Assembly: GCA_913043225.1 (NCBI GenBank)
Contig: CAJWLU010000015.1
Span: 1-64,000 of the forward strand
From: an uncultured Acidobacteriota bacterium
GTDB taxonomy: Bacteria > Acidobacteriota > Vicinamibacteria > Vicinamibacterales > UBA8438
Direction of reading: 5' to 3'
DNA length: 64,000 nt
Position numbers and translations under genes: made by a program. The stretch's first letter is position 1. Every line of letters begins with the position of its first letter. The notes beneath the pieces are model-generated. The model saw only the letters and a program-made list of their open reading frames with translations, did not search any database and was not told the DNA's origin. Below, piece by piece: positions 46,806-53,058 of the stretch.

Positions 46806-47717
46806 GTGCGCATGGACCGGTCTGGTGGCACGCGGCGGCGTGCGGTCGTCCTGGTGTGGTTGCTGGGCGCCGGGTTGATCGCGGTCGCGGTTGCCCTGAA
46901 CATCAGCTTCATCGTCGTCAACTGGCGAGCCGGTTTGCTGTTGCTCGTCGGCGTGGTCAGCTTCGTGGTGCTGATCGGGGGGCTGGCTCTCAATACCGCC
47001 TTTCTGGTGCGTGAGATCCGCAAGAGTGAACAACACGATGCGTTCATCCATGCGGTGACACACGAGCTAAAGACGCCGCTCGCCTCGATCAAGCTCTACC
47101 TGCAGACCCTCCAGCAACGCGAGCTCGATAGCGCCCGTCGAGGCGAACTAATCGACACCATGCTGGAGGATTCCGAGCGCCTGCAGCAGACCATCGACCA
47201 GATACTCCTGGCTGGGAAGACCGGCGATGCTCGCAGAGTGGACAACCCTACCGACGTGGACGTAGCGGAGGTCGTGGGTGAGTGTGTACATCTGGTCGGG
47301 AAGCGGCATCATTTGACGAACGGAGAGGTCAGTCTGGTGGACCGGTTGCCGTGCGGCACGCGAGTGCTTGGCGACCGCGACGAACTCGTCGCCGCGGTCA
47401 CTAACCTGGTCGACAACGCCATCAAGTATTCGGGCGATCGCGTCAAGGTGGTGGTCGAAGTGGCCAGCGCCGGTGCGCGGCGGGTGGCGATCAGCGTGCG
47501 TGACCAGGGAATTGGGATCACCAGCGTCGAGCTGAAGCGGGTATTTCGCCGCTTCTATCGGCTGCCTGACGCGCTCCAGTCGAGGGTGCGTGGTACCGGG
47601 GTCGGGCTTTCGATCGTGCGAGCTGTGGCCAGACGCCATGGCGGACGGGCCTACGCCGAGAGCCGTGGCGCCGGCCAAGGGAGCACCTTCACCCTTGAGT
47701 TGCCGTTGAAGACGTGA
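46806..47717 (+). CDS. Sensor histidine kinase, 2 TM with almost no periplasmic loop
   Basis: THELKTPL, NLVDNAIKYS, DQGIG, GTGVGL. Confidence 0.93.
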   Translation: MRMDRSGGTRRRAVVLVWLLGAGLIAVAVALNISFIVVNWRAGLLLLVGVVSFVVLIGGLALNTAFLVREIRKSEQHDAFIHAVTHELKTPLASIKLYLQTLQQRELDSARRGELIDTMLEDSERLQQTIDQILLAGKTGDARRVDNPTDVDVAEVVGECVHLVGKRHHLTNGEVSLVDRLPCGTRVLGDRDELVAAVTNLVDNAIKYSGDRVKVVVEVASAGARRVAISVRDQGIGITSVELKRVFRRFYRLPDALQSRVRGTGVGLSIVRAVARRHGGRAYAESRGAGQGSTFTLELPLKT

Positions 47718-48436
47718 TGAGCCGAGTGCTGATAGTTGAGGACGAGGACCACCTCGCGGCTGGGCTCAAGCTGAACCTCGAGGCGGAAGGATACGACGCC
47801 GAGGTCGAAGAAGACGGCCAGGTGGCGTTCGACCGGCTCGTGGCCAGCGGGGGCTTGTTCGACGCGGTGCTACTGGATGTGATGTTGCCCGGGCTCGACG
47901 GATTCGAGGTGGTGCGTCGCTTGCGCGCCGCCGGCCAGTTCGTGCCGGTCATGCTGCTGACTGCCCGTTCGGAGCGGGATGACGTCCTCCGCGGGTTCGA
48001 GGCGGGGGCCGACGACTATCTCCCTAAGCCGTTCGACCTGTCGATTCTACTTGCCCGGCTGCAGGGGCTGCTCAGACGACACACTTGGCTGCGCGGTACC
48101 CACCAGGAAGATGACGGACCGGACCAGTTTGCCTTCGCCGGCAAACTGCTCGACTTTCGTGCCCAGGTGCTGCGCTGGGATGGTGCAGAGCAGCCGCTGA
48201 CTTTGATGGAGGCCACGCTTTTGCGCTATCTGGTGCGGCGGGAGGGCCAGGCGGTGTCGCGGAAGGCGTTGCTCGAAGAAGTGTGGGGGGTACGGGAAGA
48301 CACTGACACCAGGACCGTTGACAATTTCATCGCTCGGCTGCGTCGTTATCTCGAGGCCGAGCCCTCCCACCCTCGGCATCTGCTCACGGTCCGTGGCGTG
48401 GGGTATCGGTTTCTGGCCGAGCCGGACGAGCAGTAG
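47714..48436 (+). CDS. OmpR-family response regulator
   Basis: VEDE, LDVMLP, GADDYLPKPF, winged helix TVRGVGY. Confidence 0.95.
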   Translation: MMSRVLIVEDEDHLAAGLKLNLEAEGYDAEVEEDGQVAFDRLVASGGLFDAVLLDVMLPGLDGFEVVRRLRAAGQFVPVMLLTARSERDDVLRGFEAGADDYLPKPFDLSILLARLQGLLRRHTWLRGTHQEDDGPDQFAFAGKLLDFRAQVLRWDGAEQPLTLMEATLLRYLVRREGQAVSRKALLEEVWGVREDTDTRTVDNFIARLRRYLEAEPSHPRHLLTVRGVGYRFLAEPDEQ

Positions 48437-48439
48437 TAC

Positions 48440-49072
48440 ATGGCGATTGTGAAGAAGCTCCTCGTGGCCGCGCTGGCCCTCGGCATTCTTGGCTACCTGT
48501 TTATCAGCAGCCTCGAAGACACCATCTCCGAGCCGTACTCGCTGGACGGGGCGTCGCTCAGTGGGTGGACACTCGAGGTTGGGGAACCGAGCATGCGGGG
48601 GCTTTCTGTGCTCGGTTTGCGCCCTCCATCGTTACTTCGGGCCAATCTGTTCGATCAGCTGTTCAACCGGACGATGGAGTCGATGACCGGTCCTCCCGAT
48701 GACCTAGTCCCGATCGTGTTGCGGGAGGAGTATCAGCTAGGTCTGGCCGGTCTGTTGAGCCCGAGCGAGCTCCTGCAGCGGGCGCGCACGGCTGGCCTTG
48801 ATCGGCTGACCTTATCGCCCGTCTGCATGGCAGTGAAGAGAGAGCCGTATCAGGGCACGACCCGCCAGTTCTATTTCGTCCTCTTCGAGACGCCAGAGAT
48901 TCAGGGGTTCCGGGCGGAATTGACCGCCCTGGCTGCCGAGCGGGGCGCCTCGGCCGGACTCCTCGACCCTTTCGAGGTGGTGCTGCCGATCGCCGGCTCC
49001 GATCCCGCCTTTACCACCTGGTGGCCGCTGATGGTGGACCGCCAGAACGATTGCCGAGCTGAGATCGGGTGA
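48440..49072 (+). CDS. Membrane-anchored hypothetical protein
   Basis: Long ORF 3 nt after the regulator; N-terminal TM; two Cys. Confidence 0.65.
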   Translation: MAIVKKLLVAALALGILGYLFISSLEDTISEPYSLDGASLSGWTLEVGEPSMRGLSVLGLRPPSLLRANLFDQLFNRTMESMTGPPDDLVPIVLREEYQLGLAGLLSPSELLQRARTAGLDRLTLSPVCMAVKREPYQGTTRQFYFVLFETPEIQGFRAELTALAAERGASAGLLDPFEVVLPIAGSDPAFTTWWPLMVDRQNDCRAEIG

Positions 49073-49193
49073 TGGCTTCGCCGATCCACGGTCAGAAGTT
49101 ATGGACCGCCGACTAACGGGCATAGGTCTTTGAGTCCTCTGCGGCCAATGCCTGGGCGGAGATGCTATTCCTGAAGCCCAAAGCCTGAAGCCG

Positions 49194-49793
49194 ATGTCCA
49201 CAGTACTCCGCGTCTACACCGACTTCGTTTGACCCTGGTGCTACCTCAGTACCGGGCGTATTGAGCGACTGCGGCGGGACCTCGGGCTCGAAGTGGAGTG
49301 GGTGTACTTTCCACTACATCCCGAGACGCCTGAGGAAGGACGTTCGCTCGAATCGCTGTTCGCGGGGCGAGGCTATGACCTCGAAGTGATGCACGAGCGC
49401 ATGGCGACGCTCATGGCAGAGGAAGAGCTGCCCTACGGTCGGCGCACGCATACCTACAACAGCCGCCTGGCTCAGGAGCTGGCGGCTTGGGCGGACGGGG
49501 AGCCTGGTGGCGACGCGTTGCGCGGAGCGCTGTATCGAGCCTACTTTGTTGACGGGCGGAACCTGTCCGACATTGATGTGCTGGTGTCTCTGGCCGAAGC
49601 GGTTGGTCTGCTCGGAAGCCAAGTGCGTCAGATACTGGAGCGCCGGACCATGCGCGAGCTCGTTGACAAGCACTGGTCAACTTCGACCCGCGCTGGCATC
49701 ACCGGTGTGCCGACGTTCGAAGTCGGCGGCTACCGCGCCGTAGGAGCTCAACAAGAGGAAGTGTTGCGTCACTTGGCTTCGATCGCTCCATAG
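49194..49793 (+). CDS. DsbA/FrnE-family oxidoreductase, selenoprotein (Sec13, UPWC)
   Basis: ATG 49194 is in frame with ORF 49293; reads YTDFV-TGA-PWCY; later FPLHP, YNS, GITGVPTF, VGAQ; SECIS-like hairpin. Confidence 0.88.
49245..49265 (+). promoter_or_regulatory. Bacterial SECIS-like hairpin
   Basis: CTCAGTAC-CGGGC-GTATTGAG, an 8-bp stem with a G-rich loop starting 20 nt after TGA 49230-49232. Confidence 0.7.
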
Positions 49794-51019
49794 ACCAACG
49801 TTTTCCACTCTTCGCGGAAGCCGCCACCTCGAGACGGTGAGACGGCAGCCATGATCACGGTCACGATGCCGTGCTCCGGGTCGATCGAGAATCTGGTGCC
49901 GGACGAGCCGTCCCACCAGTACTCGCCCGCTCCGACCGGCCAGCCGTAGGCGCCGGCGTCCAGAATCACGTTGAAGCCGAGTCCCCAGCCCGACCCGGCC
50001 ATGTAGCCGCCGCCGATCGGCATGGCGCGGGCGGGAACGTGGTTCTCGAGCATTAAGGCTACCGTGTTCTCTGAGAGTAGGCGCGTGCCAGCCAGCGAGC
50101 CATGGTTGAGGAACATCTGCGAGAACCGGAGGTAGTCGGTCACCGACGATAGAAGACCAACGCCCCCCTCGATGAGAGACGGACGCTCGGTGAAGGGCAC
50201 CTGCTCGATCGCGTACGGACGTAACTCGCCGGTCTCGCGATCGGGGCGGTAGACCGCGGCCAGTCTGTTCGCGCGTTCCCCGTCCGCCCAGAACACGGTG
50301 TCGGTCATTCCCAGCGGTTCGAAGATGCGCTGCTGGAGAAATTCATCGAAGGGTTGTCCCGACCACACCTCGACGAGGCGTCCCAGTATCGTGGTGGAGA
50401 CGCCATAGCGGAATCGGGTGCCCGGGTCTTCGAACAGTGGCATCGCGGCGACGTTGTTCACCATCGCCTCTAGGTCGATCGAACGCAGCCGCACGTCGTG
50501 GGCCCGGTAGATCGGGCTGCTCCGACTGCCGATGCCGGACGTGTGGGTCAGGAGGTGGCGCACGGTGATATCACTTTGACGAGGCCTGGTCTGTTCGAGG
50601 TTCGGCGAGGAGGCGTCGAGGAACACCCGCTGTTCGGCAAACTGGGGGAGGTAGTCCGAGATGGGGTCGTCCAGCTGGAATGTGCCGTCCTCCCACAGAA
50701 GCATTACCGCCGTACTCGTGATGGAACGGGTCATCGAGTACAGCCGGAAGATTGCGTCCTCGGGCATTGGATCGCCAACTTGCAGGTCGCGCCGGCCCAG
50801 CGCTTCGAAGTAGACCAACTTACCGTGGCGGGCCACCGCGGCCACGACCCCCGCGACGTCGCCCGCGTCGATGTGTTCCTGGAGCGCGGCGGTGGCTGCC
50901 TGAAGTCCTGTCGAGGACATGCCGACCGACTCCGGAGCCGCGCGATCCAGATCCTGCGCGGCGGCCGGTGTCCACCAAACGAGCGCGCTGACGAGCCATG
51001 CCATCTTTCGAAGCTGCAT
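49769..51019 (-). CDS. Exported serine hydrolase (beta-lactamase/EstB family)
   Basis: IFRLYSMTR, LLTHTSG, PG.RFRYG, GG.GL.S, WWDG; converges on and overlaps the DsbA gene. Confidence 0.9.
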   Translation of the reverse strand: MQLRKMAWLVSALVWWTPAAAQDLDRAAPESVGMSSTGLQAATAALQEHIDAGDVAGVVAAVARHGKLVYFEALGRRDLQVGDPMPEDAIFRLYSMTRSITSTAVMLLWEDGTFQLDDPISDYLPQFAEQRVFLDASSPNLEQTRPRQSDITVRHLLTHTSGIGSRSSPIYRAHDVRLRSIDLEAMVNNVAAMPLFEDPGTRFRYGVSTTILGRLVEVWSGQPFDEFLQQRIFEPLGMTDTVFWADGERANRLAAVYRPDRETGELRPYAIEQVPFTERPSLIEGGVGLLSSVTDYLRFSQMFLNHGSLAGTRLLSENTVALMLENHVPARAMPIGGGYMAGSGWGLGFNVILDAGAYGWPVGAGEYWWDGSSGTRFSIDPEHGIVTVIMAAVSPSRGGGFREEWKTLVYGAIEAK

Positions 51020-51084
51020 CGGGGGCTCCTTCCCTCCGGAATATAATCACCTTTTGCGCCATCGTCGAGCGCGGGAGGAGAGCG

Positions 51085-52311
51085 GTGAAACAGGCCTGTA
51101 TGCGATTCGCATGTGCTCTGGTGGTACTCGGTTTACCAGTGTCGGCCGCAGCCCAGGACTGGACCCAGTGGCGGGGCGTCAATCGGGACGGGGCGGTGCA
51201 GAGCTTCGAGGTGCCAGCAACATGGCCTACCGCGCTTGCCGAGCAGTGGACCGTAGACGTGGGTGAAGGCTATGCCTCGCCAATTCTCATCGGTGAAAGT
51301 CTGTACATGTTCAGCCGCCAGGGCGAAGAGGAAGTGATGCAGGCGCTCAACGCCGCCACCGGCCAGACCCGCTGGCGTAGCAGCTATCCCGCCAGCTTTG
51401 AGATGATCGCCGCCACCCGTCGCCACGGTCCAGGCCCGAAGGCGACGCCCGCCTATGCTGACGGTCGTCTGTTTACGTTGGGCATCAGCGGCATCGTGAC
51501 GGCGTTCGACGCCGAGAACGGCGACCAGTTATGGCAGCGGCCGGCCGACGCGGTCGAGCCGCTCTATCACACGGGGCAGTCGCCCATTGTCGACGGCGGT
51601 CAGGTGATCCTGCACGTAGGTGGCCACGATTCGGGGGCGCTTACCTCGTTCGACGTCGAGACGGGCGAGGAAGTCTGGCGCTGGGATGGTGATGGCCCCG
51701 CCTACGGGTCTCCGATCGTGGTCGAGGTCGAAGGCAGCCGCCAGGTCATAACCTTCACCCAGGAGAACTTTGTGGGTGTTTCGGTCGACAGCGGCACCTT
51801 GCTCTGGAGCCGGCCTTATACGACGCAGTCGACGACCACGTCGCAGACCCCTCGGTTGTATCAGGGCGATGTGATCGAGAGCGGCCGTGGCAACGGGATC
51901 ACCAGGTTCCGGGTGGTGCGTGAAGGTAACGCCTGGATCACCGAGGATGTGTGGCACAACGACGAGGTGTCGATGCACATGTCCAACGGCGTGGTGGTAG
52001 ACGGGGTTCTGTTCGGACTGTCCCACCTCAACAGCGGACAGTACTTCGCGCTCGACCTCGACAGCGGCACGCTGCTCTGGACCAGCGACCCCCGGCAGGC
52101 AGACCACGCGTCCATCCTCAATGTGGGCACTACGATCCTGTCGCTCGAGGAGGACGGCGAGCTGCTGGTCGTACCCCACAGCCGGACCGAGTTCGCGCCC
52201 GTTCAACGCTACGAGCTGGCCGATAGCGCCACCTGGACGCTGCCGACGCTCTCTGGCAATCGGTTGTTCGTCAAGGATATTGAGTCGCTGACGCTCTGGA
52301 CTGTCGAGTAG
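51085..52311 (+). CDS. Exported PQQ-like/BamB-like beta-propeller protein
   Basis: SD GGAGGAG; DWTQWRG.NRDG, GYASP, GPKATP, YGSP. Confidence 0.85.
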   Translation: MKQACMRFACALVVLGLPVSAAAQDWTQWRGVNRDGAVQSFEVPATWPTALAEQWTVDVGEGYASPILIGESLYMFSRQGEEEVMQALNAATGQTRWRSSYPASFEMIAATRRHGPGPKATPAYADGRLFTLGISGIVTAFDAENGDQLWQRPADAVEPLYHTGQSPIVDGGQVILHVGGHDSGALTSFDVETGEEVWRWDGDGPAYGSPIVVEVEGSRQVITFTQENFVGVSVDSGTLLWSRPYTTQSTTTSQTPRLYQGDVIESGRGNGITRFRVVREGNAWITEDVWHNDEVSMHMSNGVVVDGVLFGLSHLNSGQYFALDLDSGTLLWTSDPRQADHASILNVGTTILSLEEDGELLVVPHSRTEFAPVQRYELADSATWTLPTLSGNRLFVKDIESLTLWTVE

Positions 52312-52398: not shown

Positions 52399-53058
52399 AT
52401 GTCACTCAGAATCAATAGCACCGCACCAGACTTCATCGCCGAGACCACCCAGGGCACCATCAACTTCCATGAGTGGATCGGAGACGGCTGGGCCATCCTC
52501 TGTTCGCACCCCAAGGATTTCACCCCGGTGTGCACCACCGAACTGGGCACGATGGCCGGCTTGAACGACGAGTTCACCAAGCGCAACTGCAAGATCCTCG
52601 GCATCAGCGTCGACCCGGTCACCAATCACGAGAAGTGGTCGAAGGACATCGAGGCGTCGCAGGGGCACGCGGTGACCTATCCGCTGGTGGGCGACCCAAC
52701 CCTGGCGATCGTCAAGCAGTACGACATGCTGCCCGCTGATGCCGGCGTCACGAGCGAAGGGCGCACCCCTGCCGACAACGCTACCTCCAGGTCTGTCTTC
52801 GTCATCGGACCAGACAAGAAAATCAAGGCGACCATCACCTACCCGATGAGCACCGGGCGGAACTTCGAGGAGATTCTTCGCCTTCTCGACTCCTGCCAGC
52901 TCACCGCGCAGAAGAAGGTAGCCACTCCCGCCAACTGGAAGCAGGGCGAGGATGTGATCATCCTACCGGCCGTTTCGGATGAGGCCGCCAAAGAGGCCTA
53001 CCCGGATGGCTGGAAGTCGCCGCTGCCGTACATCCGCATCGTTCCGCAGCCGAAGTAG
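52399..53058 (+). CDS. 1-Cys peroxiredoxin (Prx6)
   Basis: SHPKDFTPVCTTE, YPMSTGRNF.EILR, ATPANWK. Confidence 0.95.
   Translation: MSLRINSTAPDFIAETTQGTINFHEWIGDGWAILCSHPKDFTPVCTTELGTMAGLNDEFTKRNCKILGISVDPVTNHEKWSKDIEASQGHAVTYPLVGDPTLAIVKQYDMLPADAGVTSEGRTPADNATSRSVFVIGPDKKIKATITYPMSTGRNFEEILRLLDSCQLTAQKKVATPANWKQGEDVIILPAVSDEAAKEAYPDGWKSPLPYIRIVPQPK

Follow-up and report, generated by a model that had tools for sequence, protein, structure and literature searches.

The stretch of DNA analysed here, in the following referred to as the window (64,000 nucleotides), is contig C15 of the 3.85-Mb genome of an uncultured Acidobacteriota bacterium, which comprises 55 contigs and is 96% complete. On its forward strand it harbors a complete coding sequence at 49194..49793 for a predicted FrnE/DsbA-like selenoprotein, and the apparent stop codon TGA at 49230-32 within this sequence very probably encodes selenocysteine (Sec, U). 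As claimed in a preliminary description of the window, the TGA lies in frame with the open reading frame (ORF) at 49293: if TGA is translated as U, the frame is open from ATG 49194 to TAG 49791-93 and yields 199 residues, and this single TGA is the only stop codon within its 199 codons. The read-through product is MSTVLRVYTDFV-U-PWCYLSTGRIERL..., with an N-terminus reading MSTVLRVYTDFV-U-PWCYLSTGR, as the TGA is directly followed by CCC TGG TGC (Pro-Trp-Cys). The nearest upstream in-frame stop is TGA 49131-33; since no ATG, GTG or TTG is present between this codon and 49194, ATG 49194 is the earliest canonical start, which leaves only 12 residues in front of U13. Under translation table 11, the only ORF listed is a truncated one of 166 residues (49293..49793, plus strand), which starts with GTG and lacks the active site.

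The UGA codon (49230..49232, plus strand) specifies the first residue of a U-P-W-C redox motif, as judged from the conservation of its column and from the alignment to Cys22 of FrnE. The resolving residue of this UxxC motif is Cys16 (TGC, 49239..49241, plus strand), which is invariant in a 48-row alignment of the family and is the only cysteine of the protein. U13 and C16 are thus its sole Sec/Cys residues, no cysteine following C16, and the same total of two is found in 68 of 96 family members. Further invariant positions of the 48-row alignment are D10, P14 and a few others, among them P173 in the segment GVPTF (codon at 49710..49712, plus strand), which falls where thioredoxin-fold oxidoreductases have their cis-proline loop and is located just before strand 174-177 of the structural model described below; position 13 itself is occupied by U or C.

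The assignment to the DsbA/FrnE family with the TGA at the first cysteine of the CPWC motif, likewise part of the preliminary description, agrees with both sequence and fold. The read-through protein matches the Pfam family DSBA (PF01323) with 100.2 bits (cut-off 25.6) over residues 5-193 of 199, and therefore across the TGA. Among proteins of solved structure, FrnE from Deinococcus radiodurans is the nearest in sequence (5cnw and others, E = 1.6e-20); its CPWC motif falls on U13-P-W-C16, the TGA being aligned with Cys22. An AlphaFold2 model, calculated from the 48-row alignment (48 of the 96 family members), has a mean predicted local distance difference test score of 96.2 and a predicted template modelling (TM) score of 0.92, and its helix 1 begins at residue 14, directly after U13. 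A Foldseek search of this model against the PDB places five FrnE entries first (5cp1, 5cnw, 5co3, 5coh and 5xwh; TM 0.90-0.92, root-mean-square deviation 1.9-2.1 Å, 30-31% identity), followed by SCO1869, whereas periplasmic DsbAs score much lower (TM 0.55-0.65). With FrnE and SCO1869 as its best solved relatives, the protein would probably fall into COG2761, the FrnE group. Judged by sequence and model, the gene product is most likely a FrnE-type thiol-disulfide oxidoreductase of DsbA fold. An export signal is impossible because the active site is at residue 13 without any upstream start, so that the protein would act in the cytoplasm. The short N-termini of the orthologues are no independent test of this location, as the start picks for the 95 other loci were restricted to at most 25 codons upstream of the motif.

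Relatives of the gene were searched in 40 related genomes of the same order and in the window's own genome, thus in 41 genomes, and matches were obtained in 17. All 13 matches of at least 51% identity (51-99%; the window's own genome and 12 others, spread over three families of the order with more than 11 genera) carry exactly one in-frame TGA, always at the same alignment position (xV-U-PWCY). Of three more distant homologues (29-32% identity), two contain CPWC and one contains U-P-Y-C; a weak match (L038, 45 residues, E = 1.2e-4) was left out of the comparison. A scan of public genomes, with one genome per species, returned 383 relatives, and among the best 80 of these (43-68% identity) the codon at the Sec column is TGA in 75, TGC in three and TGT in two, although 75 of 80 is not an unbiased fraction of Sec forms because the loci were picked for likeness to a Sec-form query. 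The best 80 belong to Acidobacteriota/Vicinamibacterales, Alpha- and Gammaproteobacteria, Gemmatimonadota, Planctomycetota, Myxococcota, Desulfuromonadales/Geobacter and SAR324, and thus represent seven phyla or more. Metagenome-assembled genomes of Acidobacteriota/Vicinamibacterales are the closest named relatives of the gene.

A pseudogene, in which a recent nonsense mutation changed TGC or TGT into TGA in an ordinary CPWC DsbA/FrnE gene, would be in keeping with the single base that separates these codons, with the existence of Cys forms and with the splitting of the gene by ORF calling under table 11. It is already refuted by the conservation data, and its probability is practically nil: the same TGA recurs in 13 of 13 orthologues of 51-99% identity and in 75 of 80 loci of several phyla, the frame shows no further stops or frameshifts, the protein model is of high confidence, the codons flanking the TGA are conserved and the RNA hairpin downstream of it covaries. 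The preliminary description had reserved this outcome for a genome without Sec machinery and for close homologues all having TGC or TGT; the machinery is present, as detailed below, and the close homologues carry TGA.

The alignment of Cys and Sec homologues proposed there furthermore yields Sec/Cys pairs. U-P-W-C is opposed to C-P-W-C in FrnE, in five of the 80 loci and in the full-length public proteins P0007, P0008, P0016, P0054 and P0067. The occurrence of Sec/Cys pairs at a redox site and of TGA-containing homologues in a wide range of organisms is what classically marks a true selenoprotein (PMC1088965, PMC13188914). The five Cys-form loci are L086, L087 and L091 from Terriglobia/Acidobacteriota and L109 and L114 from Gammaproteobacteria. 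Both groups are placed among Sec forms in a tree from a quick search, rooted at the midpoint, which would fit two independent replacements of Sec by Cys and suggests this direction of change.

In the public protein records of the closest relatives the active site is lost, as the preliminary description had expected of standard annotation. The closest records (P0002-P0006; 80-93% identity, 82-87% query cover) are 163-182 residues long, and all seven short records examined (P0002-P0006, P0018 and P0098) start after the active site; P0002 and P0004 have 166 residues and begin with MEWVYFPLHP... or MEGVYFPLHP..., and another short record with MRRELGLE.... The five full-length records examined (P0007, P0008, P0016, P0054 and P0067) are all Cys forms with DF/YV-C-PWCY. 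For this gene and its closest relatives, the catalytic Sec and the entire redox motif are thus missing from the public records because gene callers drop the first 33 residues. Could the 166-residue ORF from GTG 49293, or a later start, nevertheless be the real product, with the 12 codons and the TGA forming an untranslated leader? Such a product would match the public gene calls for the closest relatives. It would, however, be deprived of the redox motif as well as of the first strand and the first helix of the thioredoxin fold, while residues 1-33 are conserved in all orthologues, with D10, U/C13, P14 and C16 invariant, and the homologues of the Cys form are full length. This possibility is accordingly given hardly any credence.

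Just downstream of the UGA, the messenger RNA harbors the first of two hairpins named in the preliminary description, where it was called similar to a selenocysteine insertion sequence (SECIS). In the window its full extent is CTCAGTAC (49245-52)-CGGGC (49253-57)-GTATTGAG (49258-65). For comparison, 60 nucleotides around the UGA were aligned for 88 Sec forms, 81 of them distinct, and base pairs were counted for this hairpin and for the competing stem discussed below. The eighth and outermost pair, C49245-G49265, forms in this genome; because it is unpaired in 64 of 81 rows, the conserved element consists of 7 base pairs and a loop of 5 nucleotides. This SECIS hairpin core spans 49246..49264 on the plus strand, with the 5' arm UCAGUAC at 49246-52, the loop CGGGC at 49253-57 and the 3' arm GUAUUGA at 49258-64.

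Across the 81 distinct sequences, 88% of the cells of the hairpin are paired, and pairing falls to 19-51% in a control with the partner slid by 1-3 columns. Double-sided changes are found at four pairs in 26 cells, a number matched by none of 500 shuffles, and the covariation score is 0.190 as opposed to 0.111 in the shuffles, a control that takes no account of the relatedness of the sequences. Pair types were counted at 25-39 (AU 58, GC 10, UA 4), 27-37 (UA 73, CG 6), 28-36 (AU 76, GC 4) and 26-38 (GU 52, GC 25). Within the loop, G49254 (column 31) is invariant in 88 of 88 rows, and the base after it is G or T in every row listed but one (C in L034). A test independent of covariation is provided by the synonymous codon choice, which is frozen only over the hairpin. 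The normalised codon entropy is 0.04-0.44 at codons 18-23, compared with a gene-wide mean of 0.80 and a minimum of 0.38 elsewhere; examples are Leu18 (CTC in 80 of 81), Ser19 (AGT in 63 of 67), Thr (ACC in 73 of 81) and Arg22 (CGT in 81 of 85).

According to the legend of Fig. 2 in PMC13188914, the bacterial SECIS model has a loop of 3-9 nucleotides, a stem of 4-16 base pairs and a minimum free energy of at most -7.5 kcal/mol; it further requires a G as the first or second base of the loop, after which G or U is usual, and 16-37 nucleotides between the UGA and the loop. The hairpin presented here has a loop of 5 nucleotides on a stem of 7-8 base pairs, a G in loop position 2, a spacing of 20 nucleotides (49233-49252) and, folded alone, -8.2 kcal/mol, and thereby agrees with all four constraints, by a small margin for the free energy (-8.2 vs -7.5 kcal/mol). 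In the five Cys forms the hairpin is not folded (z-scores from -0.76 to +1.60). Together, covariation and synonymous-site constraint support the first hairpin as the SECIS, and its position, its covariation and the presence of selB in the genome point to its binding by SelB.

The E. coli fdhF SECIS, and the consensus bacterial SECIS in general, share the location of the stem-loop within the coding sequence just after the UGA. The sequence of the fdhF element is unrelated, no bulged U is evident in the present hairpin, and the C at either end of its loop cannot pair with the other as the loop ends do in the commonest sub-pattern of the consensus.

The one U-P-Y-C homologue mentioned above (L037:1345-2031, minus strand, genome G038 of the same order) is a distant DsbA-like protein of 31% identity and 229 residues as delimited. 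Downstream of its UGA an unrelated hairpin of 9 base pairs is found with the loop GCCGA, the loop being equally far from the UGA (-32 kcal/mol for 61 nucleotides, z = -4.1). L037 thus appears to represent a second lineage of DsbA-like proteins that contain Sec, with a SECIS of different sequence.

Besides the selection of the public loci and the neglect of relatedness in the shuffle control, several observations weigh against Sec insertion at this UGA or against the hairpin as its SECIS. The hairpin is small and only modestly stable (z = -1.96), 8 of 200 shuffles folding equally well, and its loop CGGGC departs from the N1-N2 pairing that defines the most frequent loop sub-pattern of the model. 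A search of 49150-49350 against Rfam with a permissive E-value retrieved no relevant family and two chance matches (E = 0.32 and 7.4). Many full-length Cys forms of 52-62% identity are present in the protein collection. In NCBIfam, no model exceeded its cut-off for the protein. Finally, the minimum free energy structure of the free RNA, with -14.8 kcal/mol in a 41-nucleotide fragment, is the competing stem, hereafter stem (a).

The best-scoring NCBIfam family, the Rcas_1661 seleno-lipoproteins, matched the C-terminal part alone with 29.7 bits against a required 190 and was rejected.

Stem (a) spans 49234..49256 on the plus strand and overlaps the SECIS. Both arms are present as stated in the preliminary description (CCTGGTGCT at 49234-42 and AGTACCGGG at 49248-56), and the pairing of CCUGGUGCU with AGUACCGGG is thermodynamically possible. 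The structural part of that claim thus holds, but the stem has no evolutionary support. If stem (a) were a functional element, either the SECIS itself or a regulatory partner alternating with the SECIS hairpin, one could refer to its rank as the most stable fold of the free RNA and to the 89% of cells in which it can pair among the 81 distinct sequences. However, its covariation does not rise above the shuffles (0.122 vs 0.141, the observed value being reached by 500 of 500), and in 55 of 81 rows the bases of pair 12-32 do not match. The synonymous sites of codons 14-17, which form its 5' arm and include the Pro, Trp and Cys codons, vary freely (entropy 0.65-0.99), and its loop ACCUC has no G. 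The stretch right after the A-site codon lies within the ribosome. Stem (a) starts one nucleotide after the UGA and would therefore be inside the ribosome with the UGA in the A site, freeing 49248-56 for the SECIS. On the covariation and synonymous-site data, stem (a) was rejected as SECIS or regulator, and any such role is highly unlikely.

The two mutually exclusive helices might also be read as a switch actuated by the ribosome. Stem (a) would then sequester the 5' arm and the loop of the SECIS in free mRNA, which appears very doubtful, and the ribosome, by melting 49234-42, would let the SECIS hairpin form and recruit SelB, a step that is to be regarded with equal reserve. If true, such a switch would couple the presentation of the SECIS to decoding and keep SelB from being titrated by idle mRNA; no sign of selection on stem (a) is seen, given the lack of covariation and the free synonymous sites of its 5' arm.

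The preliminary description had supposed that the organism decodes Sec, and the search of the genome bears this out. A tRNA-Sec was detected by the Rfam model RF01852 (69.9 bits, gathering score 47) and by ARAGORN (tRNA-SeC, anticodon tca). selA was found with 534.6 bits (curated cut-off 267.9), selB with 346.1 bits including its C-terminal part (cut-off 242.25) and selD with 292.1 bits (cut-off 125). With tRNA-Sec, selA, selB and selD all above the curated cut-offs of Rfam or NCBIfam, the sequence data indicate that the organism has the bacterial Sec-decoding trait. A single in-frame TGA is also present in 5 of 14 Redoxin-family matches and in 1 of 5 molybdopterin-oxidoreductase matches of the same genome. 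The resulting candidate selenoprotein genes, five of the Redoxin family and one molybdopterin oxidoreductase, are located at C11:65295-65687 (-), C50:671-1102 (-), C6:60983-61288 (+), C1:184843-185154 (+), C3:137835-138140 (+) and C23:51499-52536 (+). In the three of these genes that were examined, the TGA is at recognised Sec sites, namely ARI-U-HSPTV (FdhA-like), FTGG-U-TAQC and W-U-PYC.

The UGA might instead be decoded outside the Sec system, either by near-cognate read-through with Trp or Cys or by reassignment of TGA throughout the genome. UGA read-through by Trp-tRNA does occur in bacteria, and insertion of Sec at this codon is itself deduced from sequence. Contrary to such decoding, each orthologue has one TGA, always at the position of the redox cysteine, and TGA also serves as an ordinary stop, the adjacent upstream ORF 48440-49072 terminating at TGA 49070-72. 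Moreover, the Sec machinery is complete, and the covarying hairpin stands at SECIS distance and is absent from the Cys forms. Decoding outside the Sec system is accordingly considered extremely improbable, and Sec decoding at UGA 49230-32 is well supported by the sequence evidence.

Counting the window's own, 39 of 41 genomes of the order have a selA that scores above the curated cut-off, and so do all 14 related genomes with the TGA form. By this measure Sec is used in nearly all sampled genomes of the order. Because selA is nearly universal among them, its phylogenetic profile is uninformative. The exceptions are G029, without a match, and G030, with a weak match only; G029 contains a Cys-form distant DsbA homologue (L036).

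The selD of the window's genome is part of a fused ORF of 757 residues (C10:20025-22298, plus strand), in which the SelD/AIRS domains (residues 451-745) come after an N-terminal pyridine nucleotide-disulphide oxidoreductase domain (PF07992, 11-307). The SelD moiety is a Cys form (...MRCGGCGSKVG...), and a bcp-like peroxiredoxin ORF and a thioredoxin-like ORF directly follow the fusion. Fusions of NADH oxidoreductases with SelD have been reported before.

A 'DsbA-like protein' (COG2761, UxxC, nine sequences) was described as a selenoprotein family from the Sargasso Sea by Zhang, Fomenko and Gladyshev in 2005 (PMC1088965); a DsbA-like selenoprotein is listed in four genomes in PMC1794560, and a 2026 review includes the 'DsbA-like protein form 1, PF01323, UxxC' (PMC13188914). 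The present gene agrees with this form in its PF01323 domain, in a UxxC motif whose first cysteine is replaced by Sec, in having Cys homologues and in a bacterial SECIS that immediately follows the UGA and carries a G in its small apical loop. TGA-containing homologues are known from 12 related genomes and 75 public loci. In the text and tables of these publications, the published SECIS drawing apart, no substantive difference from the gene described here was found. The examples given there stem from marine metagenome reads and from deltaproteobacterial or clostridial genomes, whereas the closest named relatives of the present gene are Acidobacteriota/Vicinamibacterales. A further selenoprotein form of PF01323, with the motif DxxUP in a fused architecture, also contains Sec in this domain and differs in motif and Sec position; it was excluded for this gene by motif, Sec position and architecture. 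A full-text literature search for Vicinamibacter and selenocysteine yielded no paper with either term in title or abstract, and one for selenoprotein and FrnE nothing on bacteria among the matches listed. The gene is a further instance of a selenoprotein family known since 2005, and an annotation fix rather than a discovery.

With FrnE of D. radiodurans (DR_0659; FrnE subfamily cd03024), a disulfide oxidoreductase of the DsbA family located in the cytoplasm, the protein has in common the fold, the sequence, an x-P-W-C motif near the N-terminus and the absence of a signal peptide. FrnE is also its closest fold, and the motif is of the CP(W/F)C type with U for the first cysteine, the lack of an export signal following from the start position. 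Differences are the replacement of Cys22 by Sec, the length (199 vs 260 residues) and the absence of the C-terminal tail with 239-CxxxxC-244, which has been proposed to regenerate the active site of FrnE (PMC8945050). Many members of the subfamily have this tail, but not all of them do; because the FrnE proteins of S. roseofulvus and D. maricopensis are likewise tail-less according to the same publication, the missing CxxxxC tail does not bar membership in the FrnE subfamily. The periplasmic DsbA of the E. coli type, a disulfide oxidase with a CPHC motif that is reoxidised by DsbB, belongs to PF01323 as well and shares the thioredoxin fold with helical insertion. However, the protein described here has UPWC instead of CPHC, resembles the periplasmic DsbAs far less in structure, as described above, and lacks an N-terminal signal peptide or lipobox, neither being possible without an upstream start. 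By analogy with FrnE, its reaction is expected to proceed in the direction of reduction or isomerisation and not of oxidation.

The following course of events is proposed. When UGA 49230-32 reaches the A site, SelB-GTP-Sec-tRNA(Sec) would bind the 19-nucleotide hairpin 49246-64 (7 base pairs, loop CGGGC) 14 nucleotides downstream and deliver Sec instead of allowing termination, so that translation would continue to TAG 49791. The product would form a reversible selenenylsulfide between U13 and C16, cycling with the selenol/thiol state. If it acts like D. radiodurans FrnE, it would most likely reduce or isomerise the disulfides of proteins in the cytoplasm during oxidative or thiol stress. D. 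radiodurans FrnE acts as a disulfide isomerase and reduces insulin, a mutant shows sensitivity to cadmium and diamide, and a role as a cytoplasmic disulfide reductase has been proposed (PMC8945050). A specific function of the Acidobacteriota protein in disulfide reduction or isomerisation under such stress is, on balance, probable. It is deduced by analogy, and the missing CxxxxC tail and the lack of a conserved neighbour hinting at a partner count against it.

Upstream on the plus strand, the gene is preceded by a histidine kinase (46806-47717), an OmpR-type response regulator (47714-48436) and, between this two-component system and the selenoprotein gene, an ORF of 210 residues with a hydrophobic N-terminus (48440-49072). 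This ORF has no match in Pfam or NCBIfam and is conserved upstream in 6 of 96 loci. Downstream, a convergent gene on the minus strand encodes a PF00144 serine hydrolase (49769-51019), the 3' ends of the two genes overlapping by 25 nucleotides (49769-49793), followed by a PQQ-like beta-propeller protein (50998-52311) and an AhpC/TSA peroxiredoxin of the Cys form (52414-52872). No neighbour is conserved across the family or shared across phyla, the commonest being the convergent PF00144 serine hydrolase in 13 of 96 loci. A scan of 48900-49950 for promoters and terminators gave neither sigma-70-like promoters nor intrinsic terminators.

The finding opens no new question, and its value is mainly practical. 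The 88-sequence alignment offers unusually clean support, from covariation and synonymous constraint alike, for one class of bacterial SECIS and may serve as a training or benchmark case. The corrected annotation restores what is predicted to be a functional oxidoreductase and extends by one entry the selenoproteome of a lineage with selA in 39 of the 41 genomes searched.

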